Source of the DNA: Candidatus Dormiibacterota bacterium
Lineage (GTDB): Bacteria; Patescibacteriota; Saccharimonadia; UBA4664; DATLOE01
Assembly: GCA_035536395.1 (NCBI GenBank)
Contig: DATLOE010000018.1
Span: 16,193 to 80,192 of the forward strand
Reading direction: 5' to 3'
Length of the DNA: 64,000 nt
Position 1 is the stretch's first letter. Every line of letters starts with the position of its first letter. Below the pieces are notes generated by a model. It searched no databases and had not been told where the DNA came from. It saw only the letters and a program-made list of their open reading frames with translations. A program made the translations under genes and the position numbers. Positions 1 to 58,900 of the stretch are shown piece after piece.

Positions 1-1118
1 CTGCGGTAGAGTATGTTACTGAGGTATTAAACTTGAACCCAACAGCACTGGCTCCATCGGCTACGCTTGAGAACAGTATGCCGGCTGAAGTGTCTACCCC
101 TAGGTAGGTAGTAGCTCCGGCATCGTTCTGGACTCTAAAGGCAGTGGTTGAGGTCTTTTGGATAGAGTTAGTATTAGAGAAGGTATTGGCTGCACTTAAG
201 AGGGCTACATTACTACTTAAGGCACTGTCTGCTACCTTGCCAGCTGTCGAGATAGTATTAAGTTTAGAGTCAGCTATAGAGCCGGCTAGTTCAGCATTCT
301 CTATCAGCTGGCCTAAGAGTGAGACCGAGGAGTTTAGTCTGGCGTTATCTACTGTGCCAGAGGTTAGTTGAGTGGCATTAAGGGAGGTAAGTAAGACTCC
401 GGAAACAGCTGGCAGTTGGGTGGAGGCGTTTAGCTGTACCAACTGAGAAACCCCATTGAAGGTGTTGCCCTGGATGGTGACGTTGGAGCTTAGTGCACTA
501 TCTGCCACCTTGCCGGCAGTGGAGATTGTCAGCAGTTTACTATCAGAAATACTACCGGCCAGTTCTGCATTCTCTATGGTTTGGCCCAGTAGAGATACAT
601 TGGCAGACAGTCTCCCATCGGCTAGGGTGCCGGAAGATATATTAGTGGCATTAAGGGAGGTTAGTGAAGCACCTGAGCCGCTGAAAGTAGAGGCGATGAT
701 AGTGCCTGAAACATTGATGTTGCCGGTCTCTTGGACTCCGGGAGATGTGGCTTGCAACGATACACAAGTGCCATTAGGGCAGGTGGCAGTGCCAGAAGGG
801 CCCTGGGCACCAGTTGCACCTGTTGCACCAGTGGGGCCAGTTGAGCCTTGAAGACCTTGTTCTCCTTGCGGGCCGGCTGAGCCTTGGAGGCCGGTGGGGC
901 CTGGGGTACCGGCTGAGCCCTGGGGGCCTTGAGGCCCTGCCTCGCCAATCAAACCAACAGTGCCTTGTGATCCAACTGCACCCGTCATCCCCTGCTCGCC
1001 TTTGGGACCACGTTCACCGGGGTAGACAAGATGTCGGTCTGCCAAGAAGCCCGAGGTGGCACCTATAATGGTGGTGATTACAGATATTACTGCGAGCTTG
1101 CCGAAAGTAAGCTTCATA
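1..1118 (-). CDS. Collagen-like-repeat surface protein, partial (C-terminus beyond window start); paralog of 16159-18465
   Basis: Reverse-strand reading from ATG at 1116-1118 gives [43 protein letters not shown]..., i.e. a TM anchor, an ADR..YPGERG motif, then about 30 Gly-X-Y triplets ([28 protein letters not shown]...). Ser/Thr/Asn-rich repeats follow ([33 protein letters not shown] twice). There is no stop before position 1. Confidence 0.6.
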
Positions 1119-1284
1119 GGCAATAGTTCCCACCAGAAATATGCACGGATATATACTCCAACATATTCTCATTATATTGCTTATGCTTACCTGATGCAAC
1201 AGATTATGACTAATTGACAAAGTATATTAAACATTATACTGTCGTATAACTTTCTGCTGTCAGAAGATCTCGGAAGGAGTACAA

Positions 1285-1626
1285 ATGGAAATCCAGTTTT
1301 TCATTGGGTTTATTATCACATTTACAGCTTTCGCTTTTCTGTTGCATGGTCGCAACGTGGGGATAGGGCTATTTCTTGGAGTAGTAGTGTGGACAGGCAT
1401 ATGGATGATGGTGGAGTCTACAGAAAATTCGGCCAAGGACAGCGTCCTGTCCAACCTCAGCAAGCGCTGTGTCATAGAAGGCACCGTGTACCAATACCCT
1501 GGGCAAGACGTAAAAGCCGAGACCAAGAAGCTGCGCGAGGCGGTCTTTGACCGAGCCAAGTGCACGGGGTCAATCAGTCTCAAGGTAGTAAAACCCGAAG
1601 CAGCTGGGGGAGTAAATGGCAAATAG
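1285..1626 (+). CDS. Hypothetical small membrane protein
   Basis: 113-aa ORF with a hydrophobic N-terminal segment (FFIGFIITFTAFAFLL, GIGLFLGVVVWTGIWMMV). A TTGACA -35-like box lies upstream at about 1215. Chosen over the antisense ORF 1260-1622. Confidence 0.35.
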   Translation: MEIQFFIGFIITFTAFAFLLHGRNVGIGLFLGVVVWTGIWMMVESTENSAKDSVLSNLSKRCVIEGTVYQYPGQDVKAETKKLREAVFDRAKCTGSISLKVVKPEAAGGVNGK

Positions 1627-1975
1627 ACTGTTTACTCTCGCAGCAATAGTGGCAGTTCCGGCTCTAGTGATGGCGGTTGCCTGGGAGAACGTTTGGCTGA
1701 CGATTGCCATTCTGCTTTGCGCGTCGGCAGTCGTAGCCATTCCCATAATCGCCCACCGCTGTACAGACAACGGCCTTTGGCAGAAGTCAGATACTAACCG
1801 CCGGCGCGAACACCGCGCGATAATCGGCGTGCTGCTGGTTTTCGGAATAGCAATATTACTGGCAGCTTTGGGGCGTAATGGTATTCATGAACTTTCGCTT
1901 GGCCTGCTGTGTATCGCCACTCTGCTCTTGGTAGCTGGAGTCGTACTGCAGCCAGCCAAAAAAAGTAAATCATGA
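1616..1975 (+). CDS. Hypothetical membrane protein (3-4 predicted TM helices)
   Basis: 119-aa ORF overlapping the previous stop (ATGGCAAATAG); multiple hydrophobic helices. Confidence 0.4.
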   Translation: MANRLFTLAAIVAVPALVMAVAWENVWLTIAILLCASAVVAIPIIAHRCTDNGLWQKSDTNRRREHRAIIGVLLVFGIAILLAALGRNGIHELSLGLLCIATLLLVAGVVLQPAKKSKS

Positions 1976-2032
1976 TGCCCAAAGGGGCGTGAGTAGTTCT
2001 TCCGGCAGCCGCCAGATGAACGAAAGCGCCCC

Positions 2033-2623
2033 TTAAACTTTTTTGTTTTTAATATCTAAAATCTCAATTAAACGGTCTATTAAAGCTTCGGGGTTATCAT
2101 CGAACAGCACGGTGTGGCGGCGGCGCCTGGCGGCCTTAAGCACCTCGGCAATCGCGTCACTTATCCCACCCGAGCCAATTATTACCCCAATCGGCGTCTT
2201 CTCCTCAAAAGCGATAGAGAACTCCTGCATGGTGCCGATTCGCCCGCCAATAGTCACCAGCGCATCGCTGGCCCGGACCAGCAACAAGTCGCGCCCGGTA
2301 TAGCCGAACCCGGTACATACTATACTGTCGTACGATTTATATGGAAGCTTATAGGTATTAATGTGTTCACGGCGGCTGATGGCCGGGGAGAAACCAATTG
2401 AAACCCCGCCGGCCTTTTTGGCACCCATAGCCGCAAAATCGGGCAGCCCGGTGGTGGCGCCGGTTAGAAGCACATGCCCGCGCTTAGCAACACATACACC
2501 GGCTCGCTCGGCCAGCAGGTAAGATTTTTTAACGCTGCTGCCGCGAGCAGCACCGGAGACGCATATTTGATAGGGGTACTTTTTGCTCATGCTTCTCCTA
2601 TCATCAAAGCTTTTCCGGGGCAA
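2033..2623 (-). CDS. LOG-family / TIGR00725-like Rossmann-fold nucleotide-binding protein
   Basis: Motifs LLTGATTGLPDFAAMGAKKAGGVSIGFSP and GGIGTMQE..GVIIGSGG are typical of the LOG/SLOG lysine-decarboxylase-like fold. The likely start is the internal ATG at about 2592 (MSKKYPYQ). Confidence 0.55.
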   Translation of the reverse strand: MPRKSFDDRRSMSKKYPYQICVSGAARGSSVKKSYLLAERAGVCVAKRGHVLLTGATTGLPDFAAMGAKKAGGVSIGFSPAISRREHINTYKLPYKSYDSIVCTGFGYTGRDLLLVRASDALVTIGGRIGTMQEFSIAFEEKTPIGVIIGSGGISDAIAEVLKAARRRRHTVLFDDNPEALIDRLIEILDIKNKKV

Positions 2624-3830
2624 TTAGATCATTATTCAGCTTAACCAGTAACTGCTCTTCTAGCACTTTCTGCCCCATATAGCGGGCAAAGATCTCATTC
2701 CACAGCGATTCCCGGAAATGATATAAGTACCGGTCTTGGTATTTGAGTCCGTTAGAATAACTAAGCGAAATATCCATGAGATTGAAAGTAACGGGACCGT
2801 CTGGCTTCATAACCGCCACATAATCCATATCGCGCCAGGCAGTAAGGTACGGATCGACTTCATACAGAAGTTCCTCAGCCTTGCGCCAATGTAAATCCTC
2901 TGGCTGAACGTGGGGTTCAAAAATCTCGGGATGCGGCTCATTTTTTAGCTTACCAAAGTAGCGCTGTATAACCCGCCAGTGGATGTTCTGCCCTTGGGTA
3001 ATCGGAATATTCGGGGTATCGGCAATTAGGGTAGTGGCGACAATTTCACCAAAGTTCTGCTTGTTCTTAATCAGTTTAAAGAAAGAGCTGTACAAGCGGA
3101 TTTCATTAAAATAGTGGAAGATTAGCGGCATAATTTTAAGCGTGACACCCGGCATATGTTTGATTTTAATCGGCAGAATACAGATGGCGCCTAGCTCTTT
3201 GAGGTTGGTAATGTTATGCAGCTTCTTGGCTACAAAATGCTCGGTAATGCCGCCCCACTTTTTAGCATCAAAGCGGATTATCTGAATGTCACGCGGCTCA
3301 AAATCGCTGTGTTTCAGCTGAGCATACTGTGCATTAAACTCGTTCAGCCAATCGGCAGTTTCGGCAAAGCGTAGTGCACCGTAGATTTCAAAAACGTTTT
3401 CGTTCCGCAGCATTTCGGCCAGGTTCTTATAGCCCAGATGCTTTATAACCTCCTTAGGCGGCATTTTCTTCAGCAGTGCTTCAGCGACCTTCACCTTCAG
3501 GAAGCAGCCGGAGCGCGGCATATCTACCTGCTGGACATGCTTAAGAATCAGTGGAATCATCTGCGCTACATCGGCTGGATCACTGCCCCCGATAGCCTCA
3601 GCTAGTTGATGATCGTGCTTGGCTACTTGATCTATTAATGCCTGATACAGCTCGGGACCGGTACATTCCGGATCTAGCTTTAAACGCTTAATAAACTCGG
3701 CCGATTTTGTAGCTACTTCCGCCGTCAGCGCCACATCTACACCCTTGCGCCCGCTGCGATCCTCTAGTTGTTTTAGTGCTGTATCAAAGAGCGGCTGTTT
3801 GGCCTGTAAAAATTCCCCCAAGCGGCTCAT
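2604..3830 (-). CDS. Hypothetical protein (408 aa), translationally coupled to the upstream PfkB kinase
   Basis: Long clean ORF; its start overlaps the stop of 3827-4801 (ATGA). No family recognised by eye. Confidence 0.5.
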   Translation of the reverse strand: MSRLGEFLQAKQPLFDTALKQLEDRSGRKGVDVALTAEVATKSAEFIKRLKLDPECTGPELYQALIDQVAKHDHQLAEAIGGSDPADVAQMIPLILKHVQQVDMPRSGCFLKVKVAEALLKKMPPKEVIKHLGYKNLAEMLRNENVFEIYGALRFAETADWLNEFNAQYAQLKHSDFEPRDIQIIRFDAKKWGGITEHFVAKKLHNITNLKELGAICILPIKIKHMPGVTLKIMPLIFHYFNEIRLYSSFFKLIKNKQNFGEIVATTLIADTPNIPITQGQNIHWRVIQRYFGKLKNEPHPEIFEPHVQPEDLHWRKAEELLYEVDPYLTAWRDMDYVAVMKPDGPVTFNLMDISLSYSNGLKYQDRYLYHFRESLWNEIFARYMGQKVLEEQLLVKLNNDLIAPEKL

Positions 3831-4801
3831 ATGGAGGCTCTTTTTACTTTCATCCGCTTAACTTTATGCCCTTCCCGTAAAATTCCGGCTTTGGCTCCGA
3901 TCTGCTCCACTACAGAGGTCGAATTAGCGCTGCCTAGGCTCATGGCGTCTTCTATCGGCATGCCTTTGGCAATCGCGGCTACGAACCCAGAGCAAAAGGC
4001 GTCACCCGCGCCCAGCCTATCCACCACCTTCACCTTCTTATACTGACCGGTGTAGTAAATGATATTACCGACGGTAGCATAGCTGCCGCGAGGGCCGTCT
4101 GTCATCACCACGTAATGGCATTCCGGCATCGCGTTTACCATAGTTTCTACCGGCGTTTCGCCGCCGAACAGCAGCTGCATCTCTTGGCGGTTGGCCATTA
4201 GTATATGCACTTGGCTGAGCAGTTTGCGCAGCTTAGCGGCATTGGCCAGTTCTCCCCCGCCGGGGTTGAGTGCTACTTTTATGTTGTACTTACTTGCATG
4301 CAGCAATAAGCGCTTGAGTAATTCCAGATTACCGCTAAGCGAAGAGATGTAGAACCAATCGGCATCCAGAACTTGATTATAAAAATCCTCAGGGCGCAAA
4401 TAACTGGAGGCTCCACGATAAGAGAGAATAGTACGCTCACCATTGGGGGCCAGCAGAATAGTGGAGTATCCGGTGCCATGCTTGTGGTCTATTTTTACAT
4501 GACTGGTAATAATGCCCTCTTTCTTGAGTACCCTCATAATCTCGGCGCCGGCCGGATCGCGGCCGATTTTGCCAGAATATGAACTAGTGAGGCCTTGGCG
4601 GGCAAAGGTCACGGCCGCATTAGCCGCTCCGCCGCCAGTATCGTAATGCACAGCCTCAATATCGAGCTTGGCGCCCAGCGGAAACTGCTCCACATAGCTA
4701 TGGGTGCGTACATCACGCTTAGCTGCCAAGTTCTTGCCCATTAAAAACACATCTTGAGTGGCCGAACCGATAGAAATTACTCTGATATGCGAATGATCCA
4801 T
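3827..4801 (-). CDS. PfkB-family carbohydrate/nucleoside kinase (ribokinase-like)
   Basis: PfkB signatures: N-terminal GGGAANAAV (adenosine/ribokinase-like diGly) and C-terminal DRLGAGDAFCSGFV (anion hole/GAGD motif). Confidence 0.8.
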   Translation of the reverse strand: MDHSHIRVISIGSATQDVFLMGKNLAAKRDVRTHSYVEQFPLGAKLDIEAVHYDTGGGAANAAVTFARQGLTSSYSGKIGRDPAGAEIMRVLKKEGIITSHVKIDHKHGTGYSTILLAPNGERTILSYRGASSYLRPEDFYNQVLDADWFYISSLSGNLELLKRLLLHASKYNIKVALNPGGGELANAAKLRKLLSQVHILMANRQEMQLLFGGETPVETMVNAMPECHYVVMTDGPRGSYATVGNIIYYTGQYKKVKVVDRLGAGDAFCSGFVAAIAKGMPIEDAMSLGSANSTSVVEQIGAKAGILREGHKVKRMKVKRASI

Positions 4802-4878
4802 TTGCCTTAATTATACCGGTTATGGTTTAAAAAATATATCGTTTTTTGCAAAGTTTTCAGATTAAAGCTTGTAAATAT

Positions 4879-5442
4879 TTACTGCAGTGGCTTGGCGGTT
4901 TCAAAGGCTTGCTTCAGAAGCTTTTTCTGCTTGTCGGCCAGGCCTTTGGCCTCAGCAATATCTGAGCAGTAGGCCTGAGGTTCAGAAAATTCCACATGCA
5001 CGCTGCCAACCTTCTTGGCAGCCCCCGAATTGGGCAGGCTCAGCACCGAAGGGTCGCTGCCGAATTTAGTCATGGCGCCGATGGGTCCTTGCGCGGCAGC
5101 GCAGCCGGTATCAAGCTTGAGAAGCGACTTAGTGCTGAAGTAAACATAGGTGGCAGTGTAGGCCTTGCCGTTTGCGTCTGTTTCCTGCTGGTCGGCCTTG
5201 GTGTAGTAGATTAAGTCATCAAGCCCTTCGGGCAGAGTCATCTTAATGCCGAGCTCTTTTATACTAATGCTGCTTTCTTTCTTCTTTTCGGTCTTTTGCT
5301 CTTTTGCGCTGTTTTCCTGCACGGTGCGAATCTGAGTAGCCTGCCAGTACGCAAACCCAGCCAGAGCCAGAATAATCACTATTAAGATTATCTCGAATAA
5401 AAGCGTTCCGCGTTGGTTCTTAATTAAGTTTTTCATGCTCAC
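4879..5442 (-). CDS. Type IV pilin-like / pseudopilin protein
   Basis: N-terminus KNQRG|TLLFEIILIVIILALAGFAYW resembles a class III (prepilin) signal, with Glu at +5 after the Gly cleavage site and a hydrophobic helix. Confidence 0.5.
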   Translation of the reverse strand: MSMKNLIKNQRGTLLFEIILIVIILALAGFAYWQATQIRTVQENSAKEQKTEKKKESSISIKELGIKMTLPEGLDDLIYYTKADQQETDANGKAYTATYVYFSTKSLLKLDTGCAAAQGPIGAMTKFGSDPSVLSLPNSGAAKKVGSVHVEFSEPQAYCSDIAEAKGLADKQKKLLKQAFETAKPLQ

Positions 5443-5499
5443 TTCCTTGATTCTTCTTATGCTTAATAATGCCTTTTTACGGCCAAAAAGTCAAATTCT

Positions 5500-6405
5500 C
5501 TACTGTTTATTTGTAGAGGCATCGTATACGGCTGCAATAGTATCCTCTAGCATCTTATTAAACTCTTCATCGGTCTGGCTGGCACTTAAGCCCTCCGAGA
5601 GTGCTCTGTTAAAGCTGGCTATAACATTATGATTGCGCTTTAAGCGAACGCAAGCTTCGCGGGTTCCATAGCCCCCTGATAGCGCCAGAACTCTGATGAC
5701 CCGAGGATGCTCGGTAAGCGGGCGGTAAAAATCATCCTCCTCCGGCAAGGTCAGCTTAAGCATGACTTCCTGACCTGGGTTTAGGGCATCCAGCTCTGAC
5801 TGCAGTTGGCTGCGCAGCTCCTGCTCGCACTCAGCCTTATCCGCGGCATGAATGTCTACTTCGGGTTCTACGATCGGTACCAACCCGGCAGCTGTCACTT
5901 GGCGCGCAAACTCAAACTGCTGGCTGACTGCCTCGGCGATACCGGCCTTGGAGTAGCTTTTGATAAGCGAGCGCATCTTGGTGCCGAAGATGTTCTTCCC
6001 AGCGGCAAACGCGAGCAGCTCTGGCAGTCCTGGCACCGGCTTCATTAGCTGCACCCCATTTGATTCCTCGGCTAAACCATTATCGGTCTTCAGGAATGGC
6101 ACAATCTGTTTACGCTGCCACAAGTAATCAGCGCTATCCAGACCGTCTATCTGGCTCTCCGCGGTAGCCTTGAATAGAATCGCGCCTAATATACACTCGC
6201 CGCTAAAGGCTGGGCTGGTGACTATTCTAGTGCGCATTTTGTGGACCAGCTCAAACATTTCGGCCTCACTGGAGTACGCGCTCTCTGGTATGCCGTAGCT
6301 AGCCAAGGCGCCAGGTGTGCTGCCGCCACTTTGATCTAGGGCCGCAATGAACCCTTTACCTTGTTTGATTTTTTCTAATTGCTCACTACGCATATCAGGC
6401 CTCAA
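5500..6405 (-). CDS. fba: Fructose-bisphosphate aldolase, class I
   Basis: EQLEKIKQGKGFIAALDQSGGSTPGAL matches the bacterial class I FBA N-terminus (PRK05377-type: GKGFIAALDQSxGSTPKAL). Length is about 296 aa. The likely start is MRSEQLEK. Confidence 0.75.
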   Translation of the reverse strand: MRPDMRSEQLEKIKQGKGFIAALDQSGGSTPGALASYGIPESAYSSEAEMFELVHKMRTRIVTSPAFSGECILGAILFKATAESQIDGLDSADYLWQRKQIVPFLKTDNGLAEESNGVQLMKPVPGLPELLAFAAGKNIFGTKMRSLIKSYSKAGIAEAVSQQFEFARQVTAAGLVPIVEPEVDIHAADKAECEQELRSQLQSELDALNPGQEVMLKLTLPEEDDFYRPLTEHPRVIRVLALSGGYGTREACVRLKRNHNVIASFNRALSEGLSASQTDEEFNKMLEDTIAAVYDASTNKQ

Positions 6406-10790: not shown

Positions 10791-11324
10791 CTAGGGTACC
10801 AGCTCTGGTCCTTTATCGAGATGGCTTTTGTAAAATTCAATAATCTGCTTTTCATCGACATTATCGAGATTTAGGGTGTATGTCCAGGCCGCCAATTGGA
10901 CGGCGTTGCTGTTTTTGGCTCTTGGCACCACAATCGCTTTGATGCTGCCAAACTGTTGGCTGCGGGGCAAAGTATTAAACAAGTTCTTTAGCTTATCTAT
11001 CTGGGCCTTCGGCAGATCCGGCTTGTAAGCGATTACAATACCACCGTGCTCCATATTATGTATTAATGTCTCGTCGGCCAGCTCCTGCTCTTTTACCCCC
11101 CAGGGAGCAGGGCTTGTGTAATGCGGCCCAGAGCTGGGCAGATCGGAATTATAAGGCTCATGGGCAGCGCCGTTTGTAATGTGTTCCTGGCCCTGATCGG
11201 CATGCTTGGTACCGGCATTTGTCTTCGTGCTCGGAGTCTCGGCCGGCGGCTTGTTGCCCCCGCCTAAGTAAAAAACACCGATCATAACTGCTGCGACTGC
11301 AGCGACAGCTACACCTAACCACAT
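10791..11324 (-). CDS. DUF3105-like membrane-anchored protein
   Basis: N-terminal TM helix, then IHNMEHGGIVIAYKPDL and AIVVPRAKN...AAWTY, typical of DUF3105. Confidence 0.5.
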   Translation of the reverse strand: MWLGVAVAAVAAVMIGVFYLGGGNKPPAETPSTKTNAGTKHADQGQEHITNGAAHEPYNSDLPSSGPHYTSPAPWGVKEQELADETLIHNMEHGGIVIAYKPDLPKAQIDKLKNLFNTLPRSQQFGSIKAIVVPRAKNSNAVQLAAWTYTLNLDNVDEKQIIEFYKSHLDKGPELVP

Positions 11325-11377
11325 ATTACTTCCTTTGCGTACCGCTTAATAAAACAATAAATAGTATAACAAGCTTT

Positions 11378-11418
11378 AATAAAAAGCCGAACCCCGGACG
11401 CGTTATGCGTCCGGGGCT
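11378..11418 (-). terminator. Rho-independent terminator after 11430-11795
   Basis: On the minus strand: hairpin CCCCGGACGC-ATAAC-GCGTCCGGGG followed by TTCGGCTTTTTATT. Confidence 0.6.
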
Positions 11419-11429
11419 TATTGTTACCG

Positions 11430-11795
11430 CTATGCTGCAATGACCGTTTGCTGTTGCTTGCCCGATGTAACCGGCAAGCCTTTACCCCTGATCATGCTTC
11501 TGGAAACATCAACTGATCTGTATGACAGCCTCAGATGGCCGGCCTTAAGATGTTCTTCGCAGTGGATCAGGGCCTCCAAAAGCCGTTCACGCCGTACCAT
11601 CACCTTGACGCTGCGGAATTTGTCTCTCAGAACCCGATTACGATCGCGCTCAGTCAACCGATCCATAACCTCTCCGGTTTCCGTATGCACGCTCCGAAAG
11701 CCATTCCAGGCAAGCATCAGAGCTACGGCTTGAAGTCGGTTGTAGTCGGGTTCAAAGTGAACCAACTCCCACGTTCCGTCCATCTCCCACCTCAC
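11430..11795 (-). CDS. Hypothetical protein (121 aa), GC-rich, adjacent to an aberrant tRNA
   Basis: Clean ORF with its own terminator; no recognisable family. Confidence 0.4.
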   Translation of the reverse strand: MRWEMDGTWELVHFEPDYNRLQAVALMLAWNGFRSVHTETGEVMDRLTERDRNRVLRDKFRSVKVMVRRERLLEALIHCEEHLKAGHLRLSYRSVDVSRSMIRGKGLPVTSGKQQQTVIAA

Positions 11796-11816
11796 TAGCG
11801 GTTGTACTGTACAAGA

Positions 11817-11886
11817 TCAGGGTGGCTGGACTCGAACCAACAACCGACAGCTGTGCCATCCGCTCTACCAATTGAGCTACACCCTG
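11817..11886 (-). tRNA. tRNA-like gene with canonical acceptor/D/T arms but a non-canonical anticodon arm (identity undetermined; possible pseudo-tRNA)
   Basis: Minus-strand read CAGGGTG-TA-GCTCAATTGGTAGAGC-G-GATGGCACAGCTGTCGG-TT-GTTGGTTCGAGTCCAGC-CACCCTG-A. The 7-bp acceptor, D arm, T arm (GGTTCGAGTCC) and U8 are fine. The 17 nt where the anticodon arm should be do not fold into a 5-bp stem with a 7-nt loop carrying U33. The variable region is only 2 nt and no CCA is encoded. Confidence 0.45.
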
Positions 11887-11912
11887 AAGTTTTCCGTCGC
11901 AATAATGTCACT

Positions 11913-11938
11913 ATTAAAAACGGCCTCTGTTGAGGCCT
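11913..11938 (-). terminator. Rho-independent terminator after the cupredoxin gene
   Basis: Minus strand: GAGGCCTCAACAGAGGCC then GTTTTTAAT. Confidence 0.55.
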
Positions 11939-12089
11939 CTGTAACTTACTGCTTTTAGTTAGCGTACATGAAGCCTCACTGTTGCCGTATCGGCAGCAGC
12001 ACAACAAAGGCGCGAATAATTGCGTTGTGCGTGTAAGTCTTCACGAAGAATAAACTACTCCTGGTAGCCTCGGTTGTCAATCCCTCAGG

Positions 12090-12476
12090 CTACTCAGTGA
12101 CAATGACGGTACCTGTCATCCCTGCATGCGGCTGGCAAAGATAGGTATAAGTACCGGCTTTGGTAAAAGTAAAGCTGTAGCTTTCACCCTTACCCAAAAG
12201 TGCGCTCCTTGGGCCATCGGTCTGATCACTGATTACATCATGCAAGTCTGCATCTTGGTTGGTCCATGTGACTAGGGTGCCCTTTTTAATGGTGATGGTC
12301 TTGGGGTTAAAGGCAGTATTTTGCATGATAACCTCATTTGTGGCCACAGGGTTTTCAGATGAAGAAGCTGGCTGCTCCAATGTTTGTGGTTGTCTGCCAC
12401 CACCTAGGTACATATAGGTGCCGACTCCGGCGGCAGCTAGCAGAATTACTAGAACGATAATAGTAAACTTCTTCAC
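12090..12476 (-). CDS. Cupredoxin (plastocyanin/azurin-like type-1 copper protein), membrane-anchored
   Basis: N-terminal TM helix, with the His of DLHDV and a C-terminal YLCQPHAGMTG (Cys-x-x-His-x-x-Met blue-copper ligand set). Confidence 0.7.
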   Translation of the reverse strand: MKKFTIIVLVILLAAAGVGTYMYLGGGRQPQTLEQPASSSENPVATNEVIMQNTAFNPKTITIKKGTLVTWTNQDADLHDVISDQTDGPRSALLGKGESYSFTFTKAGTYTYLCQPHAGMTGTVIVTE

Positions 12477-13159
12477 TATTTCTCCTTGTATTTATCGTTA
12501 AATTGGCTGATCGCACCCTGAGCCAGCTGGTCGGCTAGCTGGCCTAGTTTGCCTACATCGGCCTTTTCCCGCTCGAACGATTTAGCATACTCCCCCGCCC
12601 GGTAAGCGTCTGCTACAGATTTAACCAAACCGATATGTTCATCTAGATGCTTCTTCAGGTTAGCTTTAGAGAGCTGGGGGTTAAGCTCGGCGAGCGAGCC
12701 GATGACTTTTTCTATGTTTGTATTCAGCTCAGAGGCTTTGGCGGTAATTGCAGTCTGGTCTCCTCCTTTAATCGCTTCTGCATAGGTCCGAATAGATTTG
12801 GTGTAAGTGTCCCAGGCAACTCTAACTTGCTTTGCTTTATCTTCCCCATAGTCATCGGCCAGCAGTTTCTGGAGATCACTGGAATTCTCATCCAGGCTGG
12901 CTGAAGCCAAATCAAGATAAGGCGCTCCGTCTAGTGTCGCCCGAGTTAATCTTGCTGAAAGGCCGGCATGTGCGCTAAAGACAGTGTTTAACTCCACCCG
13001 TAAATTGGCAGCCTTTGTGTAGGCATCCGCCTGGCTAGCGACTGGTGTAGTTGGAATAAGTTGGTTTGCGATTAGCACACTACCACCAAAACCTGCACCT
13101 ATGCCCAGTAACACAGATATTAAGGCTACCGTCAGACTTGATGTTTTATCTGGTTCCAT
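12476..13159 (-). CDS. Hypothetical membrane-anchored helical protein
   Basis: 227 aa, N-terminal TM, Ala/Lys-rich helical remainder. The stop overlaps the cupredoxin start, so it is probably co-transcribed. Confidence 0.45.
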   Translation of the reverse strand: MEPDKTSSLTVALISVLLGIGAGFGGSVLIANQLIPTTPVASQADAYTKAANLRVELNTVFSAHAGLSARLTRATLDGAPYLDLASASLDENSSDLQKLLADDYGEDKAKQVRVAWDTYTKSIRTYAEAIKGGDQTAITAKASELNTNIEKVIGSLAELNPQLSKANLKKHLDEHIGLVKSVADAYRAGEYAKSFEREKADVGKLGQLADQLAQGAISQFNDKYKEK

Positions 13160-13187
13160 GATTCTTACTTATTTTAGCATAAGCGCT

Positions 13188-14141
13188 TTAATACTGAGGC
13201 GATTTGGCAGGACGACGGTTCATGGAATCTATGTGATGGCGTATGGCAATAGCAGCTGTAACCCCCTCCCCCACGGCGCTTGCGATCTGGCCGGTAGAGC
13301 CCCCACGAATGTCGCCGGCCGCAAATACGCCAGGCTGACTGGCAGCAAAGTTCTTATCGACTTTTACAAACCCTCGTTCGTCCAACGCCACAGCACCCTT
13401 CACCCAACCGGTATTCGGAATAAGACCGATGAATACAAAAGCGCCGTCGGCCTGAATGTGGCTCACTTCACCGGTTTTGGTATTACGAATGGCAGCACCG
13501 GTAAACTTCCCTTCCTCACTATCAAAGCTATCAACCGCGGTATTAAACTGAATGTCGATCTTGGGGTTCTGCACCGCCTGCTCAGCCAGGATTTGTGTGC
13601 CTTTTAGGGCCGGTCCGCGCACCAGCATTGTCACTTTATCAGCAAACTTGGTTAAAAACTGACCTTCTTGCAGAGCCGAGTTACCGCCTCCTATAGCCAG
13701 CAAATGCTTACCGCGGTAAAAAGCGCCGTCGCAAGTAGCACAGTAATGCACCCCCTTGCCGGTCAGCTCCTTCTCTCCCAGTACACCCAGCTTTCGGTAT
13801 GCCGTACCCATGGCGAGCAAGATGGCCTTGGCTTTAAATTCCCCGCCTGAAGTCGTAACTGCTACACCTTCTTCATGGCTTGCAATCGATTGCACCCGAA
13901 TGCCGGTTTTTATCTCGGCGCCGAAGCGCTTAGCCTGCTTACATAAATTATCGGCCAGCTCAATACCGCCGATGCCCTCTGGGAACCCCGGGTAGTTATC
14001 GACATGCTCGGTGGTGGCTATCATTCCACCTACCACCTCAGCTTCCAAAACCATCGTCTTTAAATCTTCACGCGTAGTGTAGATGGCGGCAGCTAGGCCG
14101 GTGGGACCAGCACCGACTATGACTACATCATATTCCTCCAC
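13188..14141 (-). CDS. trxB: Thioredoxin-disulfide reductase
   Basis: VVIVGAGPTGLAAA FAD site, CATCDG redox-active disulfide, GGGNSA NADPH site, FAAGDIR. Confidence 0.9.
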   Translation of the reverse strand: MEEYDVVIVGAGPTGLAAAIYTTREDLKTMVLEAEVVGGMIATTEHVDNYPGFPEGIGGIELADNLCKQAKRFGAEIKTGIRVQSIASHEEGVAVTTSGGEFKAKAILLAMGTAYRKLGVLGEKELTGKGVHYCATCDGAFYRGKHLLAIGGGNSALQEGQFLTKFADKVTMLVRGPALKGTQILAEQAVQNPKIDIQFNTAVDSFDSEEGKFTGAAIRNTKTGEVSHIQADGAFVFIGLIPNTGWVKGAVALDERGFVKVDKNFAASQPGVFAAGDIRGGSTGQIASAVGEGVTAAIAIRHHIDSMNRRPAKSPQY

Positions 14142-16158: not shown

Positions 16159-18465
16159 TTATTCTTGAACCATATAATAGAAGACTCTCTCGATTGTATC
16201 CGGTTCGGCTATTTTTATGGTAAAGCCGATTTTATCGCTTTCTATAGAGTAAATTATAGGCGTGCCTACTGGGCTGGCAACAATGAATGGTTTGGTGCTG
16301 TATGGTTTTAGGAAAGCTTTATGGACAGATGTCTGCCCCGCTGGAATTACAACTTCTCCTCTAGTGTCTTCGTTGCCTTTTATGTGGCCGGCAATCGTTA
16401 TGCCCCCTTCGAAGGTGGCAGTACCGGTTACTACTAAGTTATTAATGGTAGCTGTACCGGATACGTTTAGGTTTGCGAAGTCACTGCCCTGACCCTGCAC
16501 TTGCTCTAGAGTCGCAATTCTTTGTTCAAGGCCTTTGGTTTTTGCATCAAGTTCTGTAGTGGCTTTAATGTTCAGGATGCCCAGGCCGGTGTAGTCTAGG
16601 GTTTTATAACCATTGCTGTCGGTTGAGACTAAGCTTGGGAATAGTAGTTCTACGTCTTGGGCAATTAGACCGGTTTGAGTAGCCGTGCCAAAGTTGTACT
16701 CTGGGAACTCATCACTGCGCCAATCATAATTCACGACCTTTAGCTGGCCGAAGCTAGAGAGTATATCTGATACATTCGTAATGTTCTTTTTTAACCTTTC
16801 ATCTGAGGAACAGCTGCCGGCTATGACTGTGGCATCGGCATCCTTCACACAGCCGGTGGTACCAGTTCCAACCCTCAGATCATCATCGGTTCTAAGTTCA
16901 TTAGCCGCCCCGCGGTAGAGGTTGGTATCGGCGACATTGGTACCATCGCTCCAGTCATGCTTGCCAGTAGCATTAATTACAAAGCGATTTTGTGTTTCTC
17001 CGCTGACAAAGGTAGTGAAAGAATTACCAGCAGTAGTCTGGTTAATTGAACCGATTCGCCCACCCGTGACTCCTGTTCCTCCTACAATAAAACCGCCAGT
17101 TTGATCGGTACGAAGCACCGGGAGCCCCGCACTGGTAGATCTGTAAAGACTGGTGTCGCGGACACTGGCTCCACCTGGACCCCATTCCATAGACCCGTCC
17201 GCCCTGATGGCAAAGCGATTGATGCTATCGCTAGTAACAGCTGACAAATATGCAAGATCGCTAGCCGATGCCCTAAGAGATCGTAATGAGCCGTCAGTTT
17301 GTAATACTCCTACTCCTTGGCGATAGAGGTTAGTGTCGGTGCCAAAAGTTATACCCCCAGCAGCGGTTCCCCCAGTATCAGACAGCTGCAAGGTATAGGT
17401 ATCAGCCTTGGCGATCCTGACTCCGATATCCGAGATAATACCCGCAGTCTGGCCGGCAACATCAATCCCAACAGAATTTTGCAGTAAGTTATTGTTTGAG
17501 CTACTATTCTGCACCAACAAGCCGGTTGCCCTAGTAACAGTGCCAGTGATGGCTGTCGCAGCAAACTCGGCCAACCCCTGGACTTGAGCACCGTATGTAT
17601 TGGTAATAGTACCAAAGCTTTGGCCAGCACCTGGAATCCAGGTAGCCAACCGGCCGCCTATAAGTGATGTCGCGCTGCCACTACCCTGCCATCGGGTTTC
17701 GAAATGTCCGCCCATGACATTACCAGTAAGTGTTTGGGTATTGGTGGTTGGAACTTCCGCTGACATTACGAACGATCGAAACTCAGTCGAGGAGCTTGAA
17801 GCTGGGTTGACCATGATTGAACTATGTACACCAGCAGTAGCACCAGGCGCAGTATTACTAAGGGTGCCAAAGAAATTTACAAACCCATCTGTAATTAACC
17901 CCGCTCCAACCCCCAAGCTACCCATTACATGCAAGTTCCGGCTCGGCGTAGCAGTGCCAATGCCCACATAGCCATTGCTGGTATCGACATTTAGAATCGT
18001 ACCCCCTGCCGTATTCTGTACGCCGAAAGCAGTAGTAGAATCGGTATTATTCCTAAACAGCTGATTATTACCAGTGAAAGTCTGGGAGTTGCGGTCGAGT
18101 AAGGCGACGTTAGAAGATAATTGGGAGTCGCCAATGCTGCCACTAGGGCCTTCGGGGCCTTGGTCGCCAATGGCACCTTGCAAACCCTGTGGGCCAATCT
18201 CGCCTGCTAGACCTATGGTGCCATCTTGCCCATCTATGCCATTAGCACCGTTAATCCCGGCTGTTCCGGTTTGGCCACGCTCACCTGGGTAGGTAATGAA
18301 CCGGTCGGCTATAAGGCCAGCCGAAGCTCCGATGATGACAACTGTAGTTAATAAGAAGAGTTTATTTAAAAGGAGGTGGCCAGATTGGTTTCGGAGCGGG
18401 AATAAATCACTACCACCCCCTCCTAGTCGGGGGTGGAGTTGTATGGATTTAGAAAGATTAAGCAA
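16159..18465 (-). CDS. Membrane-anchored collagen-like fibre protein with phage-tail-fibre peptidase S74 (intramolecular chaperone) domain
   Basis: 768 aa. TM anchor and ADRFITYPGERG motif are followed by 18 Gly-X-Y triplets at about 18135-18300. A long Gly/Thr/Ser/Asn-rich beta-rich region follows. SDERLKKNITNV...VVNYDWRSDEF...GLIAQDVELLFPSLV (S74 auto-processing motif, Ser-Lys dyad) sits at about 16480-16815. Then a coiled coil and a C-terminal domain shared with the giant protein. Confidence 0.7.
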   Translation of the reverse strand: MLNLSKSIQLHPRLGGGGSDLFPLRNQSGHLLLNKLFLLTTVVIIGASAGLIADRFITYPGERGQTGTAGINGANGIDGQDGTIGLAGEIGPQGLQGAIGDQGPEGPSGSIGDSQLSSNVALLDRNSQTFTGNNQLFRNNTDSTTAFGVQNTAGGTILNVDTSNGYVGIGTATPSRNLHVMGSLGVGAGLITDGFVNFFGTLSNTAPGATAGVHSSIMVNPASSSSTEFRSFVMSAEVPTTNTQTLTGNVMGGHFETRWQGSGSATSLIGGRLATWIPGAGQSFGTITNTYGAQVQGLAEFAATAITGTVTRATGLLVQNSSSNNNLLQNSVGIDVAGQTAGIISDIGVRIAKADTYTLQLSDTGGTAAGGITFGTDTNLYRQGVGVLQTDGSLRSLRASASDLAYLSAVTSDSINRFAIRADGSMEWGPGGASVRDTSLYRSTSAGLPVLRTDQTGGFIVGGTGVTGGRIGSINQTTAGNSFTTFVSGETQNRFVINATGKHDWSDGTNVADTNLYRGAANELRTDDDLRVGTGTTGCVKDADATVIAGSCSSDERLKKNITNVSDILSSFGQLKVVNYDWRSDEFPEYNFGTATQTGLIAQDVELLFPSLVSTDSNGYKTLDYTGLGILNIKATTELDAKTKGLEQRIATLEQVQGQGSDFANLNVSGTATINNLVVTGTATFEGGITIAGHIKGNEDTRGEVVIPAGQTSVHKAFLKPYSTKPFIVASPVGTPIIYSIESDKIGFTIKIAEPDTIERVFYYMVQE

Positions 18466-25629: not shown

Positions 25630-26004
25630 TTAAACCCCGGGCTTACTGGCTGTGGCGGATTCGAGAGTGTCGAAAAGCTCAAAAACCCTATGCAGCCCAG
25701 TGATCTCGAACATTCTTGCAATACCTTCGTATGAAGATACAATGTGCAGCAAGCCGCCTAGATGCCGTACTTGTTTGTGCGCAGTGACTAGAGCGCCCAA
25801 AGTCATAGAATCAAGGTATTTCACCTGGCTGAGATCTATCACCATCGGTACAGCATCCTTCATTTCGCCCTGTATGGCAGCTTTGAAGTTCTCGGCCATA
25901 TACAGGTCGATTTCTTCTTCTACGACGCGTAAAACCACCCAACCGTTTTGGCGTGAAACCGAAACCTCACAAGGCTCTGCCTGAATTCCCTCCGAAACAC
26001 TCAT
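25630..26004 (-). CDS. STAS-domain anti-sigma-factor antagonist (SpoIIAA-like)
   Basis: 124 aa; DLSQVKYLDSMTLGALV and a following helix are typical of STAS/SpoIIAA. Confidence 0.7.
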   Translation of the reverse strand: MSVSEGIQAEPCEVSVSRQNGWVVLRVVEEEIDLYMAENFKAAIQGEMKDAVPMVIDLSQVKYLDSMTLGALVTAHKQVRHLGGLLHIVSSYEGIARMFEITGLHRVFELFDTLESATASKPGV

Positions 26005-26109: not shown

Positions 26110-26184
26110 TGGCTGGGATGCTAGGACTCGAACCTAGAATCTCCTCGTCCAGAGCGAGGCGCCTTACCATTTGGCCACATCCCA
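26110..26184 (-). tRNA. tRNA-Gln (anticodon CTG)
   Basis: Minus strand: TGGGATG-TG-GCC-AAATGGTAA-GGC-G-CCTCG-CTCTGGA-CGAGG-AGATT-CTAGG-TTCGAGT-CCTAG-CATCCCA-G-CCA. Perfect cloverleaf with U1-A72 as in bacterial tRNA-Gln; CCA is encoded. Confidence 0.85.
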
Positions 26185-40700: not shown

Positions 40701-40776
40701 GTGATTATGGGGCATTGGCGCAGTTGGTAGCGCGCATCCATGGCATGGATGAGGTCATCGGTTCGAACCCGATATG
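40701..40776 (+). tRNA. tRNA-Ala (anticodon GGC)
   Basis: GGGGCAT-TG-GCGC-AGTTGGTA-GCGC-G-CATCC-ATGGCAT-GGATG-AGGTC-ATCGG-TTCGAAC-CCGAT-ATGCTCC-A-CCA. Cloverleaf is perfect, with the G3:U70 Ala identity pair and encoded CCA. Confidence 0.85.
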
Positions 40777-40847
40777 CTCCACCAAAATGATTTAACGGCT
40801 AGCTTGGGCAGTTGTGTCCGGCAGCATTATGGGCGCTAGGTACTGAA

Positions 40848-41558
40848 ATGAAACGGGCTACGATGATATTGCTAGTATTTATTCTGGTCTATGCCATATT
40901 TGAGATTATAAGGGTTAAAATGCTGATTAGCCGCGCCAATAAGCTGGTTGTGCAGTCTAAGCCATACGAACAATCACAAGCTAAACCTCGTTACCGTGTA
41001 CTTATTATCGGCGACAGCACGGGGGTCGGCACGGGGGTTAGTAGTCCCGAAAAGTCATTAGCAGGCCTACTCGGCGCTGAATTCCCTGAAGCTGAGATTA
41101 TTAATCGCTCTATAAACGGCTTGCGCAGCGACCAGTTAGCGGAAAGTCTTGAAAGTCTTCCAGAGAGTAAGTTTAATCTCGTAATCATCCACATCGGTGG
41201 CAATGACCTGATTCGGTTTAAATCTCTTAGGAAAGTGCAAAGTAATATCAAGCTGGTTTTGGACTACGCCAGCAATAGATCGGACAAAGTTGCACTATTC
41301 ACAACCGGCGACCTGAGCAAGACAAGCTTCTTCCCTCTGGCGGCGAGACCCTGGTATGGAAACTCTTCTTCTCGTTTACGCAGCAGTATGAAGAAGCTAG
41401 CCACCGAATATGACAATGTCGCTTATATCGACTTATTTAGCTATCCTGATCTCAGCGAAATAAATGGGTATGCCGTAGATGGTCTTCATCTCAATGACGC
41501 AGGATACGGGTTATGGTATAAGGCTCTGAAAGATACAATAAAAAAGCCGCTATTTTGA
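40848..41558 (+). CDS. SGNH/GDSL-family hydrolase, membrane-anchored
   Basis: Block I GDSTGVG, block III GGNDL, block V DGLHLN, after an N-terminal TM helix; start taken at MKRATM. Confidence 0.75.
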   Translation: MKRATMILLVFILVYAIFEIIRVKMLISRANKLVVQSKPYEQSQAKPRYRVLIIGDSTGVGTGVSSPEKSLAGLLGAEFPEAEIINRSINGLRSDQLAESLESLPESKFNLVIIHIGGNDLIRFKSLRKVQSNIKLVLDYASNRSDKVALFTTGDLSKTSFFPLAARPWYGNSSSRLRSSMKKLATEYDNVAYIDLFSYPDLSEINGYAVDGLHLNDAGYGLWYKALKDTIKKPLF

Positions 41559-55933: not shown

Positions 55934-58900
55934 TTAGGGTTGGTTAATGCTGGTTTTGGCGTTATTCACACCTAGCGCGATCCACGAGAACTGCATATTA
56001 TCGGCTGCTGGCTGCTTAAGTACAATGTCGAACCCATTCGGCGTTATGTTGGTGTAAGAGTATTCGCTAAACTGCCCGCCGCCGATATTCACCGAAATAG
56101 CCGGGGTTACGGCGTACTGCCTATCGAACTTCACGGTTACTTTCTGCTCACCGGCTTTAATCACGGCGAATCCTGCGGTATCACTGTTAAACGTGGGCCG
56201 GCCCGCAAACTCCACATCGGCGTTAAATAGGACATTGCCGAAGAAGGTGGCTATCTTTTCAAAGAAGCTTTCGCCCTTGAACCTGGCCGGGCCGTTCACG
56301 GTCAGCCCGCCGCCTACACTAAGGTCCATTGCTACTGTTAGTGATTGCGCGTTCAGACTCTGCAGGTCGGTTTCGGTTGAGCTGGCGCCCGATGTATCAG
56401 ACTCCTTGGCACCACTTAAGCCCTCTACCTTACTCTCTAGCTCTTCTATCCGGTTGGTGATGGAGGTTAAGTCCTCGCCAATAGCGCCATTGCTGTAGCC
56501 GCCGCCCACAATGGCCAGCGTACTACCCACACCGGTACCGCTGAACGGCATAGCCGCCCGGCCGATGATGGCACCCTGCTTAGTAGCCCGCATAGCTACA
56601 CCGGGGGTGGAAGAGGACGTAAGCGGATCGCCGGCCGCTACCGGGCCGTTCTCTGTGCTGACCTTTACCGGCACCTTACCGCTAATGGCCACAATCGTTT
56701 CCTGGCCGCTGGCCTCCCTGCCCTCACTTATTACCAAGTTAGGCGCGCTGGTAACCACACCGACTAAGTTTGTATCGTACTGAGTCTGGGATTTAACGAC
56801 CTTGTCTGGGTCGGCAGTATCTATGGAGACCACATCGCCAGTGGTAATAGATTTATCGCTGGCAAAGTACTTTTCTCCCAGGTCGGCTCCAATTACTTGA
56901 TTTGCCCTTAAGATATCCGCACTTACTTCGCCGGTAAAGCTCGCAGATGTTTGCGATTCGGTTGAGCTTGATGATTTAGCCTCAAGCTCAGCAATCCGTG
57001 AATCCAGCCCGGTTATCTGCGTATCTACCCCAGCAAGTTTTTGTGTATATTTCTCATCTAGACTTTGCAGCCCGTCGGAAGCCAGTAGTGCATTGGCATC
57101 CACCTTGTTGTCTAATTCTTGTATTGCCAGTGCTAGATGTGCCGTAATAAATATATAGTCGATTCCGCGAATTAGGCTAGGGTTGTCTGGCTCATAAAAA
57201 ACCAGACGAGGATCTATTTCAGCAACTTCTTCAGCTATAAAACCAATCGAAGATTTATTGTTTTCGTTAAACTCATAGCTTACTGGCCTTAAGGCATTAA
57301 CTATATCAAGCCCGCTTTCAGAAGCGCTAAGGTTCTCTATGTTGTGCTTGTAGCGCTCAGATGACACCGTGCAAGAAGTGGTGCTTCCGGCGCTCACTAT
57401 ACGGCCTGAACCCGATGTGCTGATCTGGCAGACAACGGCATTGGTGGCTGATGCATCGGTGCCAAGGTTATTAATTGTTAATGAGCCGTTTACATTCATA
57501 GTAAAAGCGCCGTTACTAGCGATACGCATTCTCTCTGTGTCTGAAAGACCACCAGCTGCTACAGTATAGAATGATAAACGGCCGGGTGCGCTCGTACTGG
57601 TGAATGTTCCATCAGCTTGGCCCAAGATATATGCTCCGGTATGGAACCCGGAACCACCACTTCCCCTGAAGCTGATGGCCCCAAGGTTGTCATTGGCCAC
57701 GACTGCTGTCTGTGTACCCAAAGTATCTGACTTGCTGCGATTAAAGTCGAGGAGACCTTGTTCGTTAGCGGTGGAGTAGTGACTAATAGTTAATCCACCA
57801 TAGTTGTTAGTTCCACCCGCGGATACAAGCTCTTGCTGTTGACCGAATCGTATCCCTTGCCCCGCAGTTGCTCCCATAATAAGCCTTCCTGAGCTGTCAA
57901 AGACAGTCGGCGTGGTGTCTGCATCGCCAGTTTGGTCATTGATACGCAGTGAGAGGCCGGTACCGAGATTGGTGATCATCGCGAGAGTCCCGGCGTTATT
58001 GGCGCCAGTCGAGGAAATCCTAAGACCTGTGCCGGTGTTAGCAGCATTGTTACCGCTCATCATTATGTCTACCATCTTGCCCGTGAATGCAGCCGAACTA
58101 CTGGTCACTAATAGTCCCGTACCAGAGGTAATGGAGTTGGCAGTTATAGTTTCTAGGCCGGTACCGGTATATGCACCGGTGGTAGTGATGTTCAAGCCGC
58201 TGCCAACTGTAGCGGCGCCCATAATTAGGTCTACCAGCTCACCGGCTGCCAGTAAGTTTGCGCCTCCACCAGTTATAGACAAGCCAGTGCCTGACGTCTG
58301 GGCAGTTTGAGACAAAGTCACACCCGTACCACTAGTAAGGGCATCCATCGTAAATGTCCAAGGGTTTTGGGTAGTAGCAGTGCTCCAATTGAACAGCGTA
58401 GTAAATGCCTGGTGATCAAGCACTAGGTTGCCAGTTGGAGCCGTCAGCTGGTTCCAGGCACCGGCCGCGTCAAGGTCAGATAGCGCGCCATTCTGACATT
58501 TCTTTAGCAGGTTTTCGGTAGCGTTAGCCCAGATGCGGAACTCGCCGAGGGCACAACCGGCTGGGTTACCGGCCTCTTCAGTAAAGCTTAAGTAGTCACT
58601 GCCAGAACCGTTGCCTACAAGCATTAGCCCTGAGGTTTGAGTGGTCGGGGCACTGAACAAAAGCGTGCCATCGCTGACATTGCTAATGGTTTCGCCGTTT
58701 TGCAACCGAATATCTATGCCTGTACTTGGGGCGAAGCTAAGGCCGACGTCCCAGCCGCCACCTATATTAATCGCTGTGGATGTCAGCCGAGCTGCATCAG
58801 CACCTTCGGTGAGAGCACCAATCTTAAGCCCGTTTATGGTATCAGTCCCAGCCGCATTTGTTGGGCTAAAGGCATCGGTCTCAATAATGTTGTAGGTTAA

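Follow-up and report, generated by a model that had tools for sequence, protein, structure and literature searches.

The window, as the whole analysed stretch of 64,000 nucleotides is called here, carries on its minus strand a tRNA-like gene and, directly 3′ of it, an orphan open reading frame, ORF121. The two form a unit of about 0.56 kb that runs from a terminator-like hairpin at 11937..11922 to an intrinsic terminator at 11418..11390, and that lies between a p227-cupredoxin operon and the DUF3105-GAPDH genes. In the order in which they would be transcribed, the features of the locus are as follows.

11922..11937, minus strand: terminator-like hairpin GGCCUCAACAGAGGCC followed by U5, about 35 nt upstream of the tRNA-like gene; it closes the p227-cupredoxin operon
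11817..11886, minus strand: tRNA-like gene, a putative tRNA-Pro derivative by Rfam, fold and tRNA-Pro matches, with C1 at 11886 and the discriminator A73 at 11817
11846..11860, minus strand: miniature 'anticodon arm' GAUGGCACAGCUGUC within the tRNA-like gene, 15 nt, predicted by folding as 6 bp with an ACA triloop
11802..11814, minus strand: small hairpin UUGUACAGUACAA in the 3′ trailer, between the tRNA-like gene and the ribosome-binding site, from the fold of 11925..11750
11784..11793, minus strand: Shine-Dalgarno-like sequence GAGGUGGGAG, read from the sequence, directly 5′ of the ATG at 11783
11430..11783, minus strand: orphan ORF121 from the ORF list, 117 aa long with the ATG at 11783 as start and 121 aa with a GTG at 11795
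11390..11418, minus strand: intrinsic terminator past ORF121, with a 12-bp stem that has nine G-C pairs and a T-rich tail

Body, arm and parentage of the tRNA-like gene

Read from the sequence, the layout of the tRNA-like is CAGGGUG-UA-GCUC-AAUUGGUA-GAGC-G-GAUGGCACAGCUGUC-GGUU-GUUGG-UUCGAGU-CCAGC-CACCCUG-A, followed by UCU. The acceptor stem (CAGGGUG/CACCCUG) is a perfect helix of 7 bp, and the D arm (GCUC-AAUUGGUA-GAGC) and the T arm (GUUGG-UUCGAGU-CCAGC) are both canonical, just as the original prediction had described them and as sequence and fold confirm. The body has all the parts of a canonical tRNA, namely the 7-bp acceptor stem, a D arm with G18 and G19 and a T arm with the GTTCRA loop. 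The nucleotides that make the tertiary contacts are all present as well (U8, A14, A15/U48, G18, G19, A21, G53, U54, U55, C56, A58 and C61). The minimum-energy fold of the cloverleaf lies at -28.3 kcal/mol with a z of -2.4, and all 22 bp of the acceptor, D, T and miniature-arm helices are intact. At the 3′ end no CCA is encoded and A73 continues into UCU, whereas both canonical tRNAs of the window, a tRNA-Gln and a tRNA-Ala, have an encoded CCA.

The distinctive feature of the gene is the segment between the D stem and the T stem. It spans 20 nt and consists of G26, a 15-nt hairpin and a 4-nt variable region, GGUU; the original prediction had counted 17 nt and a variable region of 2 nt, or 19 nt in all, and is corrected on both points. 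The hairpin is 2 nt short of the canonical 17 nt. Its 6-bp stem includes a U.G and a G.U pair, and a DNA palindrome, ACAGCTGT, lies inside it. The elements of a canonical anticodon arm, a 5-bp stem and a 7-nt loop with U33 and a purine at 37, are absent.

The RNA programs respond to this segment in different ways. Rfam model RF00005 scores the tRNA-like at 46.5 bits (E 9e-7 for the window), above the gathering threshold of 29, vs 68.6 and 62.4 bits for the two normal tRNAs of the window. In its alignment the anticodon arm is passed over as a local end, with 15 positions of the model set against 13 of the sequence. ARAGORN calls a 73-nt 'tRNA-Cys(ACA)' at 11815..11887. This structure has an 8-bp acceptor, a G.G mismatch and two wobble pairs, and its anticodon stem of 4 bp plus a mismatch closes a loop, GCACAGC, without U33. 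The intron-aware mode returns the same forced call, and neither an intron nor odd processing is indicated, contrary to the earlier suggestion of a tRNA in need of unusual processing. The prediction had further held that no standard 5-bp stem with a 7-nt loop and U33 could form here, and this is borne out by the fold, by the local end in the Rfam alignment and by the misfit of the ARAGORN model. The score exceeds the gathering threshold, but only with the anticodon arm skipped. No other RNA family gives a credible match at 11300..12150 with E up to 10 in Rfam, tRNA is the sole Rfam family that reaches its gathering score, and ARAGORN reports no tmRNA in the window. An alternative fold that pairs the tRNA-like with the ribosome-binding site was considered and is absent from the prediction for 11925..11750.

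The sequence itself is found again in an assembly made with a different pipeline. In the Logan assembly of run SRR8544467, a contig (L261) located through the neighbouring cupredoxin is 100% identical to the window over 455 aligned bases across the tRNA-like, so that an assembler error is unlikely.

The body is best described as a derivative of tRNA-Pro, judged by its acceptor end, its 5′ half and its body scores. In bacteria, the acceptor signature of tRNA-Pro is C1-G72 with A73. The tRNA-like has this C1-G72 pair and A73, identical to those of the tRNA-Pro(UGG) in locus L204. A metagenome collection was scanned with a query made of the 5′ half (25 nt), GGTTCGA and, between them, a free gap of 18-28 nt. 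The scan recovered two loci only, L203 and L204, both with a canonical tRNA-Pro(UGG), and the 5′ half of the tRNA-like is identical to both in 25/25 positions. These genes lie at 3791..3866 in L204 and at 2303..2228 in L203, and viral contig L226 has the same sequence. Genes for tRNA-Pro of the CAGGGTG type are likewise found in viral contigs L226 and L259.

With the anticodon arm left out, the body was compared with about 550 distinct tRNAs taken from all fetched loci, a set skewed to tRNAs with the same D arm. The best non-self matches are tRNA-Pro, and the median body score is highest for Pro, at 27, and at most 21 for every other named isotype in this set. Parentage from tRNA-Asn, to which the T arm of two phage tRNA-Asn matches had pointed, was dropped in favour of tRNA-Pro on the 5′ half and the body scores.

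The tRNA-like and the canonical tRNA-Pro(UGG) genes have in common the acceptor 5′ strand, U8 and A9, the D arm, C1-G72, A73 and the T loop UUCGAGU; the acceptor 3′ strand, CACCCUGA, is shared with the L204 gene. They differ in other parts. In the canonical genes the arm is 17 nt long with the loop UUUGGGA, the variable region measures 5 nt and CCA is encoded; in the tRNA-like the hairpin takes 15 nt and the variable region 4 nt, CCA is missing and the T stem is not the same.

The major anticodon identity elements for bacterial prolyl-tRNA synthetase (ProRS) are G35 and G36. No 7-nt loop of its arm can accommodate an NGG triplet, so the tRNA-like lacks these elements. According to our enumeration, the CACAG of the loop cannot be obtained from any YU-NGG-RN loop by a 2-nt deletion alone and needs at least two further substitutions. 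An intact body together with a loop that lies beyond a single deletion is an asymmetry that uniform neutral decay would not predict. A very recent single remodelling event would account for it, as would selection on the body. Lacking a Pro anticodon, U33, a 7-nt loop and an encoded CCA, the tRNA-like is, by its predicted structure, unable to decode. The aberrant arm in this way lends support to the part of the original prediction that had seen a disrupted tRNA, or pseudo-tRNA.

The orphan gene and the chromosomal slot

ORF121 encodes a basic product. Its GTG start at 11795 has no ribosome-binding site, whereas the ATG at 11783 directly follows the Shine-Dalgarno-like sequence. A word-indexed search of 5.8 billion proteins and an exhaustive phmmer search of 1.84 billion representatives each return only ORF121 itself, the self-match being a protein of the NCBI MAG that is labelled Candidatus Dormibacteraeota. 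No Pfam, PHROG or PADLOC family matches it, and tblastn against phages and against plasmids gives no match. AlphaFold2 models it poorly (pLDDT 55.7), and a Foldseek search with this model against the PDB gives weak, generic ferredoxin-like matches, the best with an E of 0.06 and none significant.

The coding statistics are those of an atypical gene. The codon-usage score of ORF121 is 0.003, compared with a mean of 0.288 and a 5th percentile of 0.116 for 120-codon windows of the genes of this window, and with a 95th percentile of -0.018 for off-frame windows. Its frame is the best of the six, and the GC1/2/3 pattern is gene-like, with a GC3 of 0.59 vs 0.54 for the genes of the window. ORF121 is probably a real gene, though by its codon usage and isolation a foreign or young one. 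The original prediction of an ORF that belongs to no recognisable family agrees with the family and homolog searches, and the terminator it had assigned to this ORF is there, a strong one, at 11418..11390. The elevated GC content that it had noted does not stand: over ORF121 and the tRNA-like, GC in 300-nt windows is 0.48-0.54, which lies inside the local range of 0.40-0.58 and compares with 0.50 for the whole window.

The unit sits in a part of the chromosome that differs from one relative to the next. The gene order Grx-TrxR-[variable 2-4 kb]-(DUF3105)-GAPDH-RpiB-Rpe-Tkt (TktN-TktC) is conserved in relatives, and the variable slot corresponds in the window to 11325..13187, between TrxR (13188..14141) and DUF3105 (10791..11324). 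Here the slot holds p227, the cupredoxin, the tRNA-like and ORF121, and in relatives it holds H+-PPase, MarR, lipase, acetyltransferase or GDPD genes. Three relatives found via DUF3105 (L205, L206 and L207) have the order H+-PPase-DUF3105-GAPDH. In another, found via the cupredoxin (L210), TrxR is followed by a p227-like protein (33% identity, E 1e-29) and then a cupredoxin. Neither a tRNA nor a tRNA-like nor an ORF121 relative lies between TrxR and GAPDH in any of the syntenic relative loci examined. The unit of about 0.56 kb would thus be a lineage-specific insertion.

Relatives of the tRNA-like itself were sought by several routes. The metagenome scan with the 5′ half gave only canonical tRNA-Pro and the syntenic loci gave none, so that the tRNA-like is known from one organism. 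The exact aberrant arm has no match in viral contigs, and blastn of the whole unit against phage genomes gives only generic tRNA similarity.

A search of the minus strand from the upstream terminator to the tRNA-like gave no sigma-70-like promoter. The two canonical tRNAs, at 26110..26184 (minus) and 40709..40784 (plus), each precede a co-oriented ORF (25630..26004 and 40812..41558, respectively) by 28-105 nt. Since these real tRNAs stand just 5′ of co-oriented ORFs, co-transcription of tRNA and mRNA is plausible in this genome, and their placement suggests that it may be common in a genome this compact.

The organism also deserves comment. The NCBI label of the source MAG is Candidatus Dormibacteraeota, yet its GAPDH, its DUF3105 protein and its synteny point to Saccharibacteria/Saccharimonadales; the GAPDH relatives are MAGs of this group with 70% identity or less. 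In view of these relatives the NCBI taxon label looks wrong. Several GTDB matches that have this gene order carry the labels Gammaproteobacteria, Nevskiaceae or Bdellovibrionales, a sign that contigs of Saccharibacteria may have been mis-binned. The naming of the gene calls for similar caution in annotation, as ARAGORN would enter it as a tRNA-Cys(ACA).

Two large proteins are encoded elsewhere in the window. One, of 768 aa (16159..18465, minus), combines collagen triple-helix repeats with a Peptidase_S74 (endosialidase chaperone) domain, an architecture typical of the tail fibres of phages. It is encoded 4.3 kb away from the tRNA-like and may be what is left of a prophage or else a protein of the cell surface. 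The other is a giant ORF of 2560 aa at 55934..63616 (minus).

Miniature-arm tRNA-likes in viral contigs

Viral contigs contain many genes of comparable build. They were scanned for the same type of D arm and the same T loop at a spacing 1-5 nt below canonical. This gave at least 120 matches, with 70 distinct sequences among the matches listed. Most fold as perfect cloverleaves in which the anticodon arm is a stem of 4-6 bp with a loop of 3-6 nt, and the spacing is shorter than canonical by 1-5 nt, mostly by 2-3 nt. A complete scan with a narrower pattern gave 57 matches, nine of them with a gap below canonical. Examples from loci L081-L200 are the following, and families are typified by L082 and L081.

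L179, 3736..3804: viral miniature-arm tRNA-like
L184, 5773..5846: viral miniature-arm tRNA-like
L116, 2413..2484: viral miniature-arm tRNA-like
L083, 9863..9935: viral miniature-arm tRNA-like

Some of the viral genes are located within phage tRNA arrays and others are solitary; some encode CCA, and some adjoin small ORFs. In two multi-member families, the part of the arm that the search pattern leaves free varies at 17-19% of its columns, compared with 69-92% of those in the 200-nt flanks. Variation so far below that of the flanks indicates purifying selection in these two families, and the viral miniature-arm tRNA-likes appear, from these alignments, to be conserved. No description of such a class was found in the literature searched.

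Like the tRNA-like of the window, the viral genes combine perfect acceptor, D and T arms with a reduced anticodon arm. Unlike it, they lie in viral contigs rather than among housekeeping genes and have other neighbouring proteins, and there is no specific sequence homology between the two. No partner protein is shared 3′ of the viral genes across families in general, and none there resembles ORF121. In three viral contigs (L091, L108 and L249), different miniature-arm tRNA-likes each have a homologous protein of about 260 aa 9-59 nt 3′. It has an N-terminal hydrophobic, membrane-like segment and is the only downstream protein common to different tRNA-likes.

Readings of the locus

The reading preferred here, given about an even chance of being right, is that the gene is a tRNA relic, dead for translation and carried on an acquired cassette, which may still serve as a processing or transcription module. 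A non-decoding derivative of tRNA-Pro and an orphan gene would together make up the unit of about 0.56 kb between the two terminators. This unit would be lineage-specific, probably acquired horizontally and possibly from a phage, and the derivative would have arrived with the orphan gene, or arisen beside it, in the variable slot. The tRNA-like seems to keep everything that the tRNA L-shape needs. As these parts are intact, enzymes that read the acceptor and T arm, namely RNase P, the 3′ processing nuclease and the CCA-adding enzyme, would be expected to recognise it. With a mini-hairpin for an anticodon arm and no CCA, it is unable to read codons, and the anticodon identity elements for ProRS are missing. 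The only likely residual role would be that of a transcription or processing module ahead of the mRNA of the orphan gene. A phage source is suggested by the phage-like nature of L203 (an array of 19 tRNAs and strong PHROG matches), by the CAGGGTG-type tRNA-Pro genes in viral L226 and L259 and by the orphan state of the ORF, in a sample in which most fetched loci are viral by construction. The second canonical locus, L204, has no PHROG match, and its Pfam matches are two weak ones below threshold, both on the same ORF.

A regulatory or otherwise functional tRNA-like RNA is possible on the same sequence features. The body would then be under selection and the arm deliberately reduced, so that the RNA could act outside translation as a handle, competitor or decoy for proteins that recognise tRNA. 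Its targets might be processing enzymes or tRNA-targeting nucleases, or it might work in partnership with the basic orphan protein, perhaps as part of a wider miniature-arm class in phages. The pristine body and the perfect hairpin of the arm favour such a role, as does a loop that, by inference, one deletion does not explain. The viral contigs add that short-spaced tRNA-likes are frequent there (nine of the 57 in the matched scan), that in two families the arm is far less variable than the flanks, and that some examples are solitary and some carry CCA. It is this apparently conserved class that keeps a functional reading of the window gene in play. Against it, no ortholog of this gene and no promoter ahead of it were found, its similarity to the viral families is limited to generic tRNA features, the ORFs 3′ of the viral elements are unrelated to ORF121, and the literature searched yielded no account of such a class. 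On balance a function of this kind is possible but rather unlikely. The fuller version is somewhat more doubtful still; in it a selected, non-decoding tRNA-like of an undescribed and largely phage-borne miniature-arm class was captured, with a small basic orphan protein, by a Saccharibacteria genome. RNAs of such a class would interact with enzymes that recognise tRNA, or with defence nucleases that target it, and would stay out of translation.

Integration of a mobile element into a tRNA gene, proposed in the original prediction, would explain the locus differently. The element would have entered a resident tRNA-Pro with a crossover in the anticodon loop and left behind a chimeric tRNA and ORF121 as its remnant. 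Integrases reportedly often target tRNA genes, and the crossover is said to fall often in the anticodon loop. The defect is indeed limited to the anticodon loop and the variable region, and the ORF directly 3′ is an orphan with atypical codon usage. In both respects, a defect at the anticodon loop and foreign-looking DNA 3′ of the tRNA, the locus resembles known tRNA-gene att sites and scars. It differs from them in its lack of an att repeat, an integrase and a resident tRNA in relatives. The 64-kb window was searched for a duplicated tRNA 3′ fragment, a check that the prediction had proposed for the genome. With up to three mismatches allowed, neither the 3′ 22-mer nor the 5′ 25-mer occurs in it a second time, and blastn-short gave nothing longer than 11 nt there except mismatched matches of 13 nt and 17 nt (E 17); neither half of the tRNA thus has a direct repeat in the window. 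Pfam identifies no integrase or transposase among the larger ORFs within about 10 kb, a set that covers most of those of at least 120 aa; these either have housekeeping or redox functions or match nothing in Pfam. The slot holds no tRNA gene in relatives, and the genes past ORF121, from DUF3105 and GAPDH onward, belong to the conserved core synteny. A scar of this kind is improbable. What survives of the earlier proposal is the element remnant as foreign or lineage-specific DNA, for which the absence from the slot in relatives, the orphan ORF and its codon usage speak; insertion into a tRNA gene does not.

That the gene is a working tRNA with an odd arm, either the tRNA-Cys(ACA) of ARAGORN with its 4-bp stem and 7-nt loop or one whose loop has 5 nt, is very improbable in spite of the ARAGORN call and the RF00005 score above gathering threshold. 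Position 33 of the loop GCACAGC is a C, and the pairs G32-C38 and C33-G37 reduce this loop to a triloop. CCA is missing, unlike in the other tRNAs of the genome, and Rfam skips the arm. The ACA anticodon of that call, A73 and the Pro-type acceptor are a poor fit to Cys identity. An error of sequencing or assembly in an ordinary tRNA-Pro gene is hardly credible. It would suit a metagenome-assembled source and an arm exactly 2 nt short, but the second assembly is identical, restoring 2 nt gives no Pro anticodon loop, and the variable region is shorter and CCA absent as well.

Whatever its role, the gene is one more pseudo-tRNA or tRNA-like gene, of a kind already known, in an uncultured, genome-reduced bacterium. 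Among such genes, tRNAOther of Bacillus cereus keeps a full anticodon arm. It is presented as a pseudo-tRNA that flanks a genomic island and has no role in translation (PMC3399842). As far as that account goes, the two are alike in being tRNA-shaped and non-translating, in adjoining non-core DNA and in having a possible non-translational role; they differ in that phenotypic evidence exists for tRNAOther, while the gene of the window is known from its sequence alone. The tRNA-like domain of tmRNA is similar in having a tRNA body without a decoding anticodon, but the tRNA-like has G3-C70 and no G3-U70, and ARAGORN makes no tmRNA call in the window. The mascRNA of MALAT1 and the t-elements of plant mitochondria are eukaryotic or organellar. 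They are cloverleaf-like, with a reduced or non-functional anticodon arm, lie next to another transcript, and are cut by RNase P or RNase Z, which defines RNA ends. The gene of the window resembles them in its reduced arm beside a putative transcript, and the features seen here are the structural prerequisites only, the acceptor/T-arm stack and the elbow nucleotides.

If the viral miniature-arm class is truly common and conserved, this would hint at a use of the tRNA body outside translation, for instance as a decoy, a processing handle or a protein partner. If that class is functional, the window locus would be a cellular example of it. Dense phage arrays of tRNA genes are found in L126 at 1651..5767 (16 genes) and in L203 at 1..3974 (19 genes). 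The L126 array includes several duplicated His, Lys and Trp genes and one for which ARAGORN calls a 4-base anticodon (gcca).
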